From: Eledone cirrhosa
Taxonomy: Eukaryota
Length of the DNA: 64,000 nt
Assembly (NCBI GenBank): GCA_964016885.1
Contig: OZ024746.1
Location: 56,234,001 to 56,298,000 of the forward strand
Direction of reading: 5' to 3'
A program made the position numbers and the translations under genes. Below the pieces are notes generated by a model, which saw nothing but the letters and a program-made list of their open reading frames with translations, was not told where the DNA came from and did no database searches. Below, piece by piece: positions 1,951 through 56,639 of the stretch. Within the stretch, counting starts at the first letter, position 1. Each line of letters opens with the position of its first letter.

Positions 1951-2163
1951 TGTATATATATATATATATATATATATATATATACGTATAAACATGCGTA
2001 TGTATGTAGATACGTACATACTTACAAACACACATACAAAAAAAATACAGACACACATACATACACACATCATACATACACATACATACATGTATATATA
2101 TATATATATATATATATATATATATATATATATATATATATATATATATATATATATATATAT
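1949..2163. repeat. (TA)n / (CA)-rich microsatellite
   Basis: Direct reading. Confidence 0.95.
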
Positions 2164-2185
2164 ATTTATTAAAATAACATATTAA

Positions 2186-2225
2186 AGTTTCGCTGCTTTC
2201 ACCCTTAACGGGATCTTCTGAAACT
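2186..2225 (-). ncRNA. Degenerate hammerhead ribozyme motif (family A, left arm; part of stem III deleted)
   Basis: Minus strand AGTTT-CAGAAGA-TCCC GTTAA GGGT-GAAA-GCAGCG-AAACT; U4 is A. Confidence 0.5.
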
Positions 2226-3156
2226 AACAAAGTCAATCTGTAAACGCAGAACTGGATATTTCAAAAAACGTTGCAACCGGAGGAAGACAGGAAGACGATA
2301 CTTTGGTTCGTGGAAACGTTTGCTGGCAAAGAACGGGAAAAAACGAATATAATACGTCATTAATAGGAGCGGTGAAAAACAATTCCGCGCAAAGACAGAA
2401 CCACGTTTATCGTATAAAAGAGGTCGTAGACTAATATTCTCTTAGGTGGTGCATAGAGACGTTCTCTGGCAATGAACGAAAAAAACGAAGATAATACGTC
2501 ACATGTGGAGCGTGGAGAACAATAGCACGCAAAGACAAAACCACGTAAATGGTATAGCAGAAGTTGTAGACTAAAATTCTAACTAGGAGACCGAATGAAT
2601 CTCCGCTACAGAGTTAAGAACAACGTAAATAAATACAATACAGAAGTAATAGAAATAAATAAATACATACACGCAAACAAATACGTACATATACAAGCAT
2701 ACGCAAAAACTTACAATAGGTAAACAAAACCACGCACATATAAATATGTGTGTGTGTGTATGCGTGCATACAAATAAATAAATAATTATATAAACGTATA
2801 TAAATAAATAAATACGTATATAACAAGCGCACACACATACCTAAATGTAAATACACGAATGTTCGGAGACGTAAGTCAACCAAAACATGAAGTACACATA
2901 TACACACGCCCTACATACGTACGAACCTGCATACTCACACAGACAAAACACCCGTATACACATAGCCGAACCATATGTACCAGAATATATAAAAACATTA
3001 TACGCCATAACAATCAAATATACGTACGAGGAGGTATACGTACCTTCACAAAACATACGGGTAATATATACTTACCTATGCAAATAAGTAAAGGTATAAA
3101 CAAAACATATACTTAGCTCCCACATCAAGACGTAAACTATCCACGTATAGATCGTA

Positions 3157-4287
3157 CTATCCGTTAGGGTATAACTTGGGGCTGTAATACAGGAAAGTTT
3201 TGTGCAATTTATGTTTACAAGCCGAAATTGCCTCAGATTTTTTGTTTAAGATGTGGTCTGTGGCGTAGAGTATTTCCAGGGCCTCAGCGGCGCAGAGGTC
3301 ACATGGTCTTTTATTTCCGTTATACAATCTAGCCCTAGCTAGGTTCTCCCAGTGTAACTTATATTGGGTGTGGTTGTCTTTTAGACTCCAGATATAAGCT
3401 GAAAGTGATGTCATATTCCTTCTTAGAGGGTAACGAAAAGAATGGATATGCATGTAAAGACGCTGCTTGAAACTATTGGTGGTTAACCCTATGTAGGCCC
3501 TACGGGACGTGGGTGTTACAACCTTACATTTGTAGACAATGTTACTAGAGAGGCATTTCCCGCATAGGGGGAAATCAACCCGATTCCTACAATTACAGTT
3601 AGTACTAACTACAGGGTTGCACGTGTTCCTACGGCTAGGTAGTTTAGCTAAATTTGAAGCTGTGATGTTATGTGCAAGGTTAGAAGTCGTAGAGTAAAAC
3701 ATGTTAATAGTATTTCTATTAAAAATGTTACTATATTTATGGGTAGGGGGAAAATGCTTCGTAATAAGGGAAATAAAGATCTTACCTAATGGTGTGGCCA
3801 CCTCCATATTATATGGTGGGTTATACCAACGAATGCGACGGGATCTATTTCTACTAGGTCTATTTTCGTACTCTGGATATGCTACCTTATCGACAAATCC
3901 ACTTCGAGCAAGAGCTTCATTGTAATAAGTGGAATGGTCGTTGAAAATACGCTCGTTGGTGGAAAGACGGGAAAGCCTGAACGAAACGTTTCTTACCAGG
4001 TTCTTGGTTATGCTGGCAGGATGGTTGGAATGTTTACTTATGTAATTAAGCGTATCATTCGGCTTTCTATACGGGTAATACAACCCATTCAATAAGTTGA
4101 GGGTAACGTCGAGGTAATTAACGACCGAGAGATTGGCCTCAACCTGTATAGAGTGGTTGAAACCTTTAAAGAAGGCTGTGAGTTCTTTTCTGAACCTGTC
4201 GCAAGCACGAGGTCCGCAATTAGTCATGGTCAAAAGACCATCGTCACGGTACAAATCACCGCCCGCGTTGGGGAATTCGTCCTTCAT
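3157..4287 (-). CDS. PLE reverse transcriptase C-terminal part + GIY-YIG endonuclease (5'-truncated open frame, 376 aa)
   Basis: LYRDDGL (RT catalytic motif), VNYLDVTL, YISKHSNHP, WYNPPY, linker CNCRxxxxFPLCGKC, IVYKCKV...YIGLT...FKQR, CDLCAAE, CKH. Confidence 0.93.
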   Translation of the reverse strand: MKDEFPNAGGDLYRDDGLLTMTNCGPRACDRFRKELTAFFKGFNHSIQVEANLSVVNYLDVTLNLLNGLYYPYRKPNDTLNYISKHSNHPASITKNLVRNVSFRLSRLSTNERIFNDHSTYYNEALARSGFVDKVAYPEYENRPSRNRSRRIRWYNPPYNMEVATPLGKIFISLITKHFPPTHKYSNIFNRNTINMFYSTTSNLAHNITASNLAKLPSRRNTCNPVVSTNCNCRNRVDFPLCGKCLSSNIVYKCKVVTPTSRRAYIGLTTNSFKQRLYMHIHSFRYPLRRNMTSLSAYIWSLKDNHTQYKLHWENLARARLYNGNKRPCDLCAAEALEILYATDHILNKKSEAISACKHKLHKTFLYYSPKLYPNG

Positions 4288-4968
4288 AGAGAAAAGAAGG
4301 AAAAGGCCGATTTGGTTGACTTACGTCTCCGAACATTCGTGTATTTACATGTAGGTATGTGTGTGCGCTTGTTATATACGTATTTATTTATTTATATACG
4401 TTTATATAATTATGTATTTATTTGTATACACGCATACACACACACACATATTTATATGTGTGTGGCTTTGTTTACCTATGGTAATTTTTTACGTATGCTT
4501 GTGTATGTACGTATTTGTTTGCGTGTATGTATTTATTTATTTCTATTACTTCTGTATTGTATTTATTTACTTTGTTCTTAACTCTGTAGCGGAGATTCAT
4601 TCGGTCTCCTAGTTAGAATTTTAGTCTACGACTTTTGCCATACCGTTTACGTGGTTTTGTCTTTGCGTGCTATTGTTCTCCACGCTCCACATATGACGTA
4701 TTATCTTCGTCTTTTTCGTTCATTGCCAGAGAACGTCTCTATGCACCACCTAAGAGAACATTAGTTTACGACCTCTTTTATACCATAAACGTGGTTCTGT
4801 CTTTGCGCGTAATTGTTTTTCACGCTCCTATTAATGACGTATTATATTCGTTTTTTCCCGTTGTTTGCCAGCGAACGTTTCCACGAACCAAAGTATCGTC
4901 TTCCTGTCTTCCTCCCGTTGCAACGTTTTTTGAAATATCCAGTTCTGCGTTTACAGATTGACTTTGTT

Positions 4969-5019
4969 AGTTACAGAAAATCCCGTTAAGGGTGAAAGCA
5001 GCGATTCTTTGCTTAAACT
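4969..5019 (+). ncRNA. Degenerate hammerhead ribozyme motif (family A, right arm)
   Basis: AGTTA-CAGAAAA-TCCC GTTAA GGGT-GAAA-GCAGCGATTCTTTGC-TT-AAACT: all three stems present, core mutated. Confidence 0.55.
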
Positions 5020-54535: not shown

Positions 54536-54576
54536 CGTTGCTGACGATAGCTAATTAGATTGAAACTAGTACAGCG
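54536..54576 (+). ncRNA. Minimal type I hammerhead, family B (core intact, stem II eroded)
   Basis: CGTTG-CTGACGA-TAGCTAATTAGATT-GAAA-CTAG-TA-CAGCG. Confidence 0.8.
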
Positions 54577-54999
54577 TTCCTTTGTCAGTGTTGAACAAAC
54601 GAGCAACGATGGTTGCTAGACACTACGGCTTAATACGGGATGTTTGTTTACAAACACACCGAGCATTATAATAAATGTTCGATGAATTCATACGTACATA
54701 TATATATTTGTGTGCATGTATATATATATACATATATGTATATATATATATATATATATATATAATATATTTAGAAACACACAGATACATGCGGACACAC
54801 ACATACATGAATGCATCCGCACCCAACCGTGAGTTAAGGGTGCCAACTTCACCGATGTTGCTCAATGAATGACTGGGACATACCAATCCGGTTGAACTAG
54901 ACTGAACCAATATCAGAGTTAAAAATACATTATGAAGAGAGAAGAGACATTTAGATATAATTAGTAATAAAATGTATCATACCTAAACTGCTCCTAGAT

Positions 55000-55089
55000 T
55001 CCTCGACTACGTAGTTTCGTGGCATAAACAAAAACAATATATCATAAAGATATAGAGTCCTTGCGAGGTTTGCCGACTTATCAAGAGGA
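55000..55089 (-). ncRNA. Type I hammerhead with U3-A8 core and long stem II, family C (intact)
   Basis: TCCTC-TTGATAA-GTCGGCAAAC...GTTTATGCCAC-GAAA-CTACGTAG-TC-GAGGA; perfect stem I, palindromic stem III, GUC site. Confidence 0.85.
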
Positions 55090-56083
55090 TACCTCATTTT
55101 ACTAGTCTCAAGATCGCGTCTACACGACGTGAGAAAGAATCCCAAAAGGCGGAGGGGGAGATAGTCACGCGATATAACGGTCGAGAAACAGAGCTAAGCC
55201 TCTTATAACCCCGAAGAAAATACCACGGAGGCGGAGGGGGTATTTATATCGAAGCCGTAGAAGAGGTGGTGAAGGGGGCGAGAAGTATGAGTAATGGAAG
55301 CTTTCCAGCAGTCCCCACACTTCAAAGATTGCTCGACCAGAGGGAGTTATTAACAATATATTTAGAAATACACAGATACATGCGGACATACACATATACA
55401 TGAATGCATCCGCACCCAACCGTGAGTTAAGGGTGCCAACTTCACCGATGTTGCTCAATGAATGACTGGGACAGACCAATCCGGTTGAACTAGACTGAAC
55501 CAGTATCAGAGTTAAAAAAGGACTCTATATCTTTATGATATATTGTTTTTGTTTATGCCACGAAACTACGTAGTCGAGGAATCTAGGAGCAGTTTAGGTA
55601 TGTTACATTGTATTACTAATTATATCTAAATGTTTCTTCTCTCTTCATAATGTATTTTTAACTCTGATACTGGTTCAGTCTAGTTCAACCGGATTTGTCT
55701 GTCCCAGTCATTCATTGAGCAACATCGGTGAAGTTGGCACCCTTAACTCACGGTTGGGTGCGGATGCATTCATGTATATGTGTGTGTCCGCATGTATCTG
55801 TGTGTTTCTAAATATATTGTTAATAACTCCCTCTGGTCGAGCAATCTTTGAAGTGTGGGGACTGCTGGGAAGCTTCCATTACTCATACTTCTCGTCTCCT
55901 TCACCACCTCTTCTACGGCTTCGATATAAATACCCCCTCCGCCTCCGTGGTATTTTCTTCAGGGTTATAAGAGGCTTAGCTCTGTTTCTCGACCGTTATA
56001 TCGCGTGGCTATCTCCCCCTCCGCCTTTTGGGACTCTTTCTCACGTCGTGTAGACGCGTTCTTGAGACTAGTAAAATGAGGTA

Positions 56084-56173
56084 TCCTCTTGATAAGTCGG
56101 CAGACCTCGCAACGACTCTATATCTTTATGATATATTGTTTTTGTTTATGCCACAAAACTACGTAGTCGAGGA
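56084..56173 (+). ncRNA. Family C hammerhead (G12 to A at a CpG, probably inactive)
   Basis: TCCTC-TTGATAA-...-CCAC-AAAA-CTACGTAG-TC-GAGGA; the 3' half with intact GAAA is also present at 55520-55580. Confidence 0.8.
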
Positions 56174-56639
56174 ATCTAGGAGAAGTTTAGGTATGATACA
56201 TTTTATTATTAATTGTATCTAAATGTTTCTTCTCTCTTCATAATGTATATATATATATATATATATATATATATATATATATATATATATATATATATAC
56301 ATATATATTTATTTATATATGTGTCTGTGTGTGTGTGTGTGTGGGGGGGGGGGGGGGCAATTAAGTGTGTGTAACGGGATTTCTCATGAATAGCGTACAG
56401 TTATCTAGTCATCTAGATTGGAAGGGTCATATTATTAAATAGTAGTGACCAACTTCAGTAACGAATGACCATGGTATTTGCATCTACATAGTCCTCCTTA
56501 CAGATACAAGCCCGTAGAATATTATTTGTGGTGAACCACCAGTGATCCATGCCTACCAATCTCCCCCTCTCGCCACCGATGTTTTCCATAAGAAAGTCCC
56601 ATAGAAAGTTCGATACAGCTTCGCACTCGTTACGTTACA

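Follow-up and report, generated by a model that had tools for sequence, protein, structure and literature searches.

Hammerhead-derived motifs and Penelope-like elements in the window

The 64,000-nucleotide stretch of the Eledone cirrhosa genome considered here (GCA_964016885.1, contig OZ024746.1, positions 56,234,001 to 56,298,000 of the forward strand; hereafter the window, numbered from its first base) is AT-rich DNA from a 3.0-Gb assembly and holds 110 runs of (TA)6 or longer. It carries 22 motifs derived from type I hammerhead ribozymes, belonging to 13 families and spanning 2186 to 56173, in agreement with an initial annotation, made from the letters alone, that had proposed about 20 whole or partial motifs from roughly ten families. 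The core is intact in only four or five of them, and decay or truncation affects most of the window's copies.

To count these motifs we used a structure scanner in which stem II may be long and all three stems contribute to the score. At a cut-off score of 22 or more it returned four perfect-core, three-stem motifs against a block-shuffle mean of 0.04 (maximum 1, n = 25), and six against a shuffle mean of 0.2 when up to one core change was allowed; one more perfect core, its stem III flawed, lies at 21328-21370. Our first, narrow scanners (stem II of up to 45 bases, or half motifs) had shown little excess over shuffles in the window because stem II reaches 50-60 bases. A homology search with intact family members from elsewhere in the genome then gave 23 window matches, compared with 0, 1, 0, 0 and 0 in five shuffles. 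Two of these, near 17240 and 39240, proved on reading not to be hammerheads and were dropped, and one weak, decayed match near 42460 was added. A run of (TA)6 or longer follows within 300 bases downstream in 19 of the 21 retained homology matches, consistent with the earlier description of motifs near the 3' ends of (TA)n-bounded islands.

The type I core (C3-U4-G5-A6-N7-G8-A9 or its U3-A8 form, G12-A13-A14, A15.1-U16.1, H17) is complete in four to five window motifs and in 106 motifs of the genome sample described below, and the type I layout of three stems with stem I open was found in both scans. C3-G8 and U3-A8 cores, a U.U pair at 10.1-11.1 and palindromic stem III inserts were each seen in window motifs, as had been anticipated. 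The proposed consensus YTGANRA fails for four motifs that read CAGA or CCGA, members of families carrying A or C in place of U4 (U4A and U4C) that depart from the core at this one position.

Two coding elements account for part of this set. The first (2166..5130, minus strand) is a 5'-truncated Penelope-like element whose own 3' end is repeated in inverted orientation, with arms at 2166-2623 and 4572-5039 that are 94% alike and flanking (TA)n runs at 2093-2164 and 5130-5175. Its open reading frame (3157..4320, minus strand, 387 aa) encodes a reverse transcriptase (RT) thumb and a GIY-YIG endonuclease; used as a query, it retrieved 150 scored genome matches of at least 92% identity, among them several whose frame is open over 713 aa. 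These 713-aa copies have a single frame, RT followed by GIY-YIG, in an element shorter than about 3 kb, and at locus L232 the protein shows RWR, DKT, C-N-C-RNRAD-C (the CxCX5C linker), CDLC (CxxC) and CKH (CxH). Copies of the family are inserted into (TA)n, and in several a hammerhead lies 186-190 bases downstream of the 713-aa frame; this terminal-repeat hammerhead retains its fold, with CAGA as the core in nearly all copies. On these motifs, as defined by Craig et al. 2021 (PMC8557442), and not on an RT tree, we assign the element to the Hydra clade. Within the window its hammerhead is present at 2186..2225 (minus strand; U4A, with 11 stem III bases deleted) and as an inverted copy at 4969..5019 (plus strand; U4A and G8A), both read from homology matches. 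Copies of the family end at either of two 3' positions separated by about 90 bases (window 5043-5129): of 97 anchor matches, 35 reach (TA)n early and 54 enter the tail.

The second coding element (22596..25945, plus strand) is a broken Penelope-like element with an inverted 3' copy and 312-base sub-repeats, recognized from its repeats and by reading. A remnant of a CX4CxxC-type linker sits in its broken frame, and because of this remnant we regard it as probably Neptune- or Nematis-like. Its inverted arm holds an intact U3-A8 hammerhead (22656..22695, minus strand, found by the scanner), a core shared by 24 of the 25 family copies. The 3' untranslated parts of the two coding elements contain sub-repeats, about 140 and 312 bases long (2304-2580, 22891-23467 and 25077-25699).

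The initial annotation had placed two motifs in coding Penelope-like elements and the rest in non-coding elements; instead, three lie within the two coding elements and a non-coding setting was established for 8 of the 22. Two further motifs, also of the two coding families, are loose ends: a decayed relative of the U3-A8 hammerhead (26075..26125, plus strand, from repeat comparison and homology) and a cut, decayed Hydra-family hammerhead (26483..26526, plus strand, from homology). In the other short families, the motif-bearing ends may be either non-coding units or 5'-truncated coding elements.

The eight motifs in non-coding elements belong to three families of tandem units, recognized from repeats and tandem periods. 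A retrozyme-like, head-to-head element with a unit of about 430-490 bases (20717..21732) contains a G12A hammerhead (20976..21018, minus strand) and the intact core with a flawed stem III insert (21328..21370, plus strand), both from the scanner. Repeat comparison identified a second insertion of this family (53803..54720), in which homology and reading gave two hammerheads with damaged stem II (54079..54121, minus strand, and 54535..54577, plus strand). A young element with a unit and tandem period of 691 bases (38548..39114, plus strand) ends at (TA)n, has copies that are 96-100% alike and carries an intact hammerhead with a 51-base stem II (38748..38830, plus strand, scanner). The third family, with a unit of 592-595 bases (54771..56248), is present as a partial tandem with an inverted copy; its intact U3-A8 hammerhead has an 8-base palindromic stem III insert (55000..55089, minus strand, scanner) and is accompanied by a matching 3' half (55518..55580, plus strand, homology) and a G12A copy (56084..56173, plus strand, scanner).

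The remaining motifs include a hammerhead with an intact core and long stem II (27259..27313, plus strand, scanner) and its cut, inverted partner (26612..26662, minus strand, from repeat comparison and homology), a U4C hammerhead (28958..29004, plus strand) and a hammerhead-derived motif with a U4C core and a shortened stem II (42683..42745, minus strand, from homology and reading). We also found a decayed member of an AT-rich family (15535..15610, plus strand, scan and homology), a 3' half with 93% identity to an intact member (16436..16456, minus strand), a 3' half with a palindromic stem III insert (20463..20490, minus strand, 92% homology match) and two decayed, weak matches (20235..20275, minus strand, 73%, E 3e-5; 42447..42511, plus strand, E 2e-4).

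Hammerhead load across the genome

We then sampled 99 stretches of 10 kb (990 kb) at round-number positions, rather than by random draw, on 27 large contigs. The scanner found 106 perfect-core matches (two sharing one stem III) in 43 of the 99 stretches, compared with 0, 0 and 0 in shuffles, and 36 families have a perfect-core member in this sample. Weighted by contig class, with unplaced contigs handled as small chromosomes, this corresponds to about 110 intact cores per Mb, or about 328,000 per genome (bootstrap 237,000-425,000), an intact core not being proof of activity. Small chromosomes are richer than large ones (53 matches in 40 stretches versus 53 in 59). The window had been described as dense, and we considered it as a hotspot; its four perfect cores, against 7.0 expected per 64 kb, place it at or below the genome average. 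In several stretches (L005, L010, L026, L097 and L117) unrelated hammerhead families are stacked within one (TA)n tract, with up to eight motifs per 10 kb.

The largest published count that we found comes from the 28-Gb axolotl genome, at 126,247 motifs, with more than 6,000 reported for Acropora coral and about 5,000 for Mytilus mussel (PMC7229834; Li, Clavereau and Pollet 2026 preprint), and about 9,000 for Xenopus. The intact-core load estimated here is higher than any published animal count found, a status that is provisional because the published counts used other descriptors. Our literature search found no hammerhead census for octopus, and the main text of two cephalopod repeat papers does not mention ribozymes.

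The association with (TA)n extends across the sample. Runs of (TA)6 or longer lie within 200 bases downstream of 84 of the 106 intact motifs and upstream of 32 of 103, compared with 16.5% of background positions, supporting the proposed enrichment next to (TA)n. Among the control repeats, (CA)n was not enriched (8 of 106 versus 7.4%) and (GA)n was somewhat enriched (9 of 106 versus 2.7%); p-values were disregarded because the sample matches are not independent of each other. The excess of downstream over upstream runs fits priming at (TA)n near the element's 3' end.

These counts also bear on the possibility that DNA so rich in AT and in repeats yields such motifs by chance. The loose half-motif scans remained near shuffles, low-scoring window matches with two core changes equaled them, and two look-alikes, at 6790-6840 (plus strand) and 7170-7215 (minus strand), gave no family in a genome search and were left out of the count. 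Set against this are the strict scans of the window and sample, in both of which, as the initial annotation had predicted, motifs exceed shuffled controls, together with the family structure, the orientation and the stem covariation described below. Chance is refuted for the 22 motifs bar the three weakest (near 20260, 26100 and 42460), and as a general explanation it is extremely improbable. The two look-alikes are possibly very old copies.

Stem covariation and palindromic stem III

We next asked whether the stems covary across copies, as the initial annotation had proposed. In a family of 29 aligned rows, 93.4% of stem cells are paired and 28 cells are changed on both sides, compared with 11.2 in shuffles (none of 500 reaching the observed value), and a 13-row family shows nine two-sided compensatory cells compared with 3.7. 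Slid alignment controls pair at 34-56%. Covariation across copies was thus recovered in two families.

A perfect palindrome forms the stem III insert in 65 of the 106 intact sample motifs, as would be expected for dimers. Minimal hammerheads with a palindromic stem III in metazoan Penelope-like elements were reportedly treated by Lunse and colleagues in 2017. Other loci have stem II inserts of 90-100 bases or a long hairpin stem III (L070:1149-1243, L162 and L102:6989-7118), and such families could work as monomers.

Non-coding units and the continuity of their templates

In the window's three unit families the units follow one another head to tail at a spacing of about 430-490, 592-595 and 691 bases, and none holds an ATG-initiated frame of more than 93 aa. 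Each has a fixed 3' end base, followed by (TA)n in 20 of 69, 16 of 45 and 17 of 30 matches and otherwise mostly by the next unit, which itself begins with TA. Being non-coding tandem units with one type I hammerhead each, these families fit non-LTR retrozymes, for which circular RNA intermediates would be expected. Folded as a circle, the 592-base unit reaches -158.7 kcal/mol, compared with -135.4 (sd 6.7) for 25 shuffles. This family is present in contigs of four sequencing runs, an observation uninformative on expression, and none of the runs listed is recorded as RNA. A Penelope protein match lies upstream of the unit hammerhead in 1 of 51, 1 of 37 and 0 of 20 cases for the three families. 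A candidate coding parent of the 430-490-base family, at a junction in locus L002, was a single nested insertion, a one-off.

That terminal repeats may be amplified locally in tandem has been raised in the preprint of Li et al. (2026), and since the units do occur as tandems we considered whether they are local satellites that derive from Penelope terminal repeats and spread by amplification at the DNA level rather than through their own RNA. Unit copies are nonetheless dispersed over many chromosomes at 93-100% identity, and they end at one fixed base before (TA)n with variable 5' ends and inverted partners, the insertion signature of Penelope-type elements. We consider a satellite origin very unlikely.

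We also looked for a pile-up of 5' ends at the predicted hammerhead cut site, a candidate trace of cleaved templates that was rejected: only 12 of 195 truncated copies have a 5' end within 3 bases of the site, near an even spread, and 59 of 254 copies extend at least 148 bases past it. The templates therefore appear to have been continuous across the site, either as uncut multimers or as re-ligated circles, as earlier proposed, which would be compatible with cleavage or with its absence.

Recurrent relaxation of core position 4

Alignment of the Hydra family revealed CAGA in place of CUGA in 83 of 86 copies, as in all 10 matches near protein-selected loci. The 990-kb sample contains 18 matches to this family, none with a canonical core, at a rate implying about 50,000 copies. 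A second U4A family, unrelated to the first and characterized by a long stem III, has A4 in 23 of 24 matches and C4 in the other, and retains an 8-pair stem I along with the long stem III. Two further families favor C: C4 is present at 9 of the 13 loci of a second Hydra-like family, fetched through its reading frame, and in 10 of 12 fetched relatives of the hammerhead at 28958-29004. Among the 20 families seen at three or more loci these four alone show a family-level core deviation, every one at position 4, and of the 31 sample matches with a single change 12 are altered at this position (seven from one family). Two control seeds, carrying G8A and G12A, returned families that were otherwise mostly intact. 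We also considered a G8A sub-lineage within the U4A Hydra family and rejected it, as its 11 G8A copies all came from a G8A-seeded search, the copies lie on mixed backgrounds and none of the 18 sample matches carries the change.

U4C occurs naturally in one viroid, where it is weak in vitro and sufficient in vivo (Perreault et al. 2011, PMC3088659). We did not find U4A in the literature searched, including the text, figures apart, of Perreault et al. 2011. The Hydra hammerheads tabulated by Craig et al. 2021 are all CUGA, but the descriptor used there required CUGA. U4A or U4C as the majority core in four of 20 multi-locus families appears to be new here. A-to-I editing is unable to turn A4 back into U.

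These families raise an alternative in which the ribozymes are dispensable passengers, the elements move when read-through RNA undergoes plain target-primed reverse transcription, and a change to U4A or U4C is where ribozyme decay begins in successful lineages. Naiad elements thrive without canonical hammerheads in published accounts, the Hydra family with U4A ranks with the most abundant ones here, lacks a canonical core in all its sample matches and has a weak stem III, and 5' ends do not pile up at the cut site. Decay alone would not readily account for changes at other core positions being scattered single copies rather than family traits, for the stem I and stem III preserved in the second, unrelated U4A family, or for U4C, a change that introduces a CpG although the genome is poor in this dinucleotide (observed/expected 0.57); stem covariation also speaks against a passenger role. 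We consider this alternative unlikely, though well short of negligible.

Relation to known systems and to standard annotation

The system is of a known kind, and what is distinctive here is the estimated load together with the repeated, family-level relaxation of one core position. The novelty implied by the initial annotation does not stand for the system as such: Craig et al. 2021 (PMC8557442) describe almost all Hydra-clade families as inserting into (TA)n and carrying hammerheads, and their supplement lists a (TA)n preference and a hammerhead for Hydra-1_Obim of Octopus bimaculoides. The window family shares with that clade a protein of about 710 aa that joins an RT to a C-terminal GIY-YIG, the RW(K/R), DKT, CxCX5C, CxxC and CxH motifs, (TA)n targets, inverted 5'-truncated copies, a tail at one end, and a hammerhead close to the 3' end whose stem II often has U.U as its basal pair. 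It differs in its CAGA core, theirs being all CUGA, and in a tail of about 90 bases rather than 30-40; in addition, many Hydra-like families coexist here, with proteins 30-50% identical. The stem II sequence of our Hydra family was not found in their supplement. Penelope-type protein matches occur in 22 of the 99 sample stretches, many just 30-50% identical to the window protein. Pfam does not recognize the Penelope proteins, and homologues of the 713-aa protein are unnamed save for one gene id among the 120 matches listed.

The non-coding units resemble animal non-LTR retrozymes (PMC7229834; Li 2026 preprint) in being non-coding, a few hundred bases long, provided with one type I hammerhead and found as monomers to multimers beside Penelope-like elements. 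Retrozymes have been proposed as non-autonomous Penelope derivatives that arose from terminal repeats (Li, Clavereau and Pollet 2026 preprint). Our units differ in being dispersed, (TA)n-bounded, equipped with head-to-head partners, spread over dozens of families and known from DNA alone. With the metazoan Penelope hammerheads described by Cervera and de la Pena 2014 (PMC4209133) our motifs share a terminal-repeat location, solo and opposite-strand pairs, U3-A8 covariation, palindromic stem III, predicted dimers and many families per genome, whereas the top counts cited there are 4,000-9,000 per genome and the text contains no U4 variant that we met. Among natural core variants (PMC3088659), U3-A8 and U.U at 10.1-11.1 are known alongside the viroid U4C; the difference here is that U4A and U4C are the majority state of multi-thousand-copy genomic families.

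The initial annotation had expected standard annotation to mask these motifs as simple repeats. Such masking would not remove them because the intact motifs lie outside the window's tandem arrays, and it is Rfam that misses them: no window match was obtained at gathering scores, and two intact motifs gave none at E values up to 10. A looser search returned only microsatellite-driven microRNA matches among the matches listed (150 of 200). The motifs are in this respect invisible to Rfam.

Other repeats in the window

The window also contains a mixture of Dong/R4-like, RTE-like, Helitron and SINE repeats, similar to that reported from octopus genomes. Non-LTR fragments with a restriction-like endonuclease motif and (CATA)n borders (11740-12830 and 13130-14000), which we take to be Dong/R4-like, have related pieces in inverted layout at 7747-7887 and 10153-11666. 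Decayed LINE fragments, with an AP endonuclease match, lie at 1-1950 and 8613-9780, the latter ending in a short zinc-finger-like frame followed by microsatellites, and a broken Helitron (30700-36660) matches Helitron_like_N and a PIF1 helicase. An element with 105-base terminal inverted repeats (5888-6774) is presumably Tc1/mariner-like. A short SINE-like repeat is present in at least eight copies, some in partial tandem (5626-5849, 22312-22419, 26233-26423, 41592-41813, 46322-46428, 48049-48271 and 51399-51764). A pyrimidine-rich minisatellite of about 46 copies of 32 bases, with a 315-base higher-order period, occupies 42773-44236, and an imperfect palindrome of 216 bases (46458-46673) is possibly a miniature inverted-repeat transposable element (MITE).

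Discussion

The explanation that we consider most likely, with good confidence, is that Penelope-like elements and non-coding units, both inserted in (TA)n and both carrying a type I hammerhead fold at the 3' end, form a system moved by Penelope RT/GIY-YIG that tolerates change at U4. A tandem copy would be transcribed, and its hammerheads, joined for the most part into dimers by their palindromic stem III, would cleave this RNA slowly or incompletely. The GIY-YIG endonuclease would nick (TA)n, and the resulting end would anneal by microhomology to a short UA(U) whose position, 20-350 bases downstream of the ribozyme, is fixed, and so serve as primer for the reverse transcription of coding elements and, in trans, probably of the non-coding units. 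On RNA left uncut or re-ligated into a circle, synthesis would then continue past the cut site and yield 5'-truncated, tandem and head-to-head copies. New copies would afterwards decay neutrally, and active lineages would likely be selected for the ribozyme fold, selection tolerating A or C at core position 4.

Several points weigh against this explanation. The evidence throughout lies at the level of DNA sequence. Covariation is support rather than proof because the aligned rows are related by descent and were picked by a scanner that rewards stems, and because counts of pairs and of pair types are not above shuffles. That 5' ends do not gather at the cut site also fits a lack of cleavage, and a parent protein for the non-coding units, sought among the upstream matches, could be tied to none of them. 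Three of the four U4 families were expanded from U4-variant seeds. U4A may be dead because a published full mutational scan of a type III hammerhead recorded low activity for single changes within CUGA; moreover, most U4A copies of the Hydra family have a stem III mismatch, and the U4A Hydra hammerhead fold, at -12.8 kcal/mol, lies 2.8 above the predicted minimum of -15.6. Metazoan Penelope hammerheads are described as weak cleavers in vitro, and of nine Xenopus retrozyme dimers tested, one cleaved (Li, Clavereau and Pollet 2026 preprint).

A bolder version of the explanation, which we advance tentatively and as more doubtful than not, is that Eledone cirrhosa holds the largest hammerhead load so far reported for an animal, some 300,000 intact cores in dozens of families, and that U4A and U4C are working, selected variants, perhaps slow ones that spare RNA for reverse transcription. 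Should U4A and U4C function in this way, searches that demand CUGA would overlook whole high-copy ribozyme families. Spaced some 9 kb apart on average, the hammerheads could also cleave or circularize host transcripts that read through them. For the role of hammerheads in Penelope-like elements, the dozens of independent families present here amount to a natural mutational scan; with active lineages changed only at core position 4, the purpose of Penelope hammerheads becomes directly testable, as ribozymes that are either needed but slow or mere passengers.

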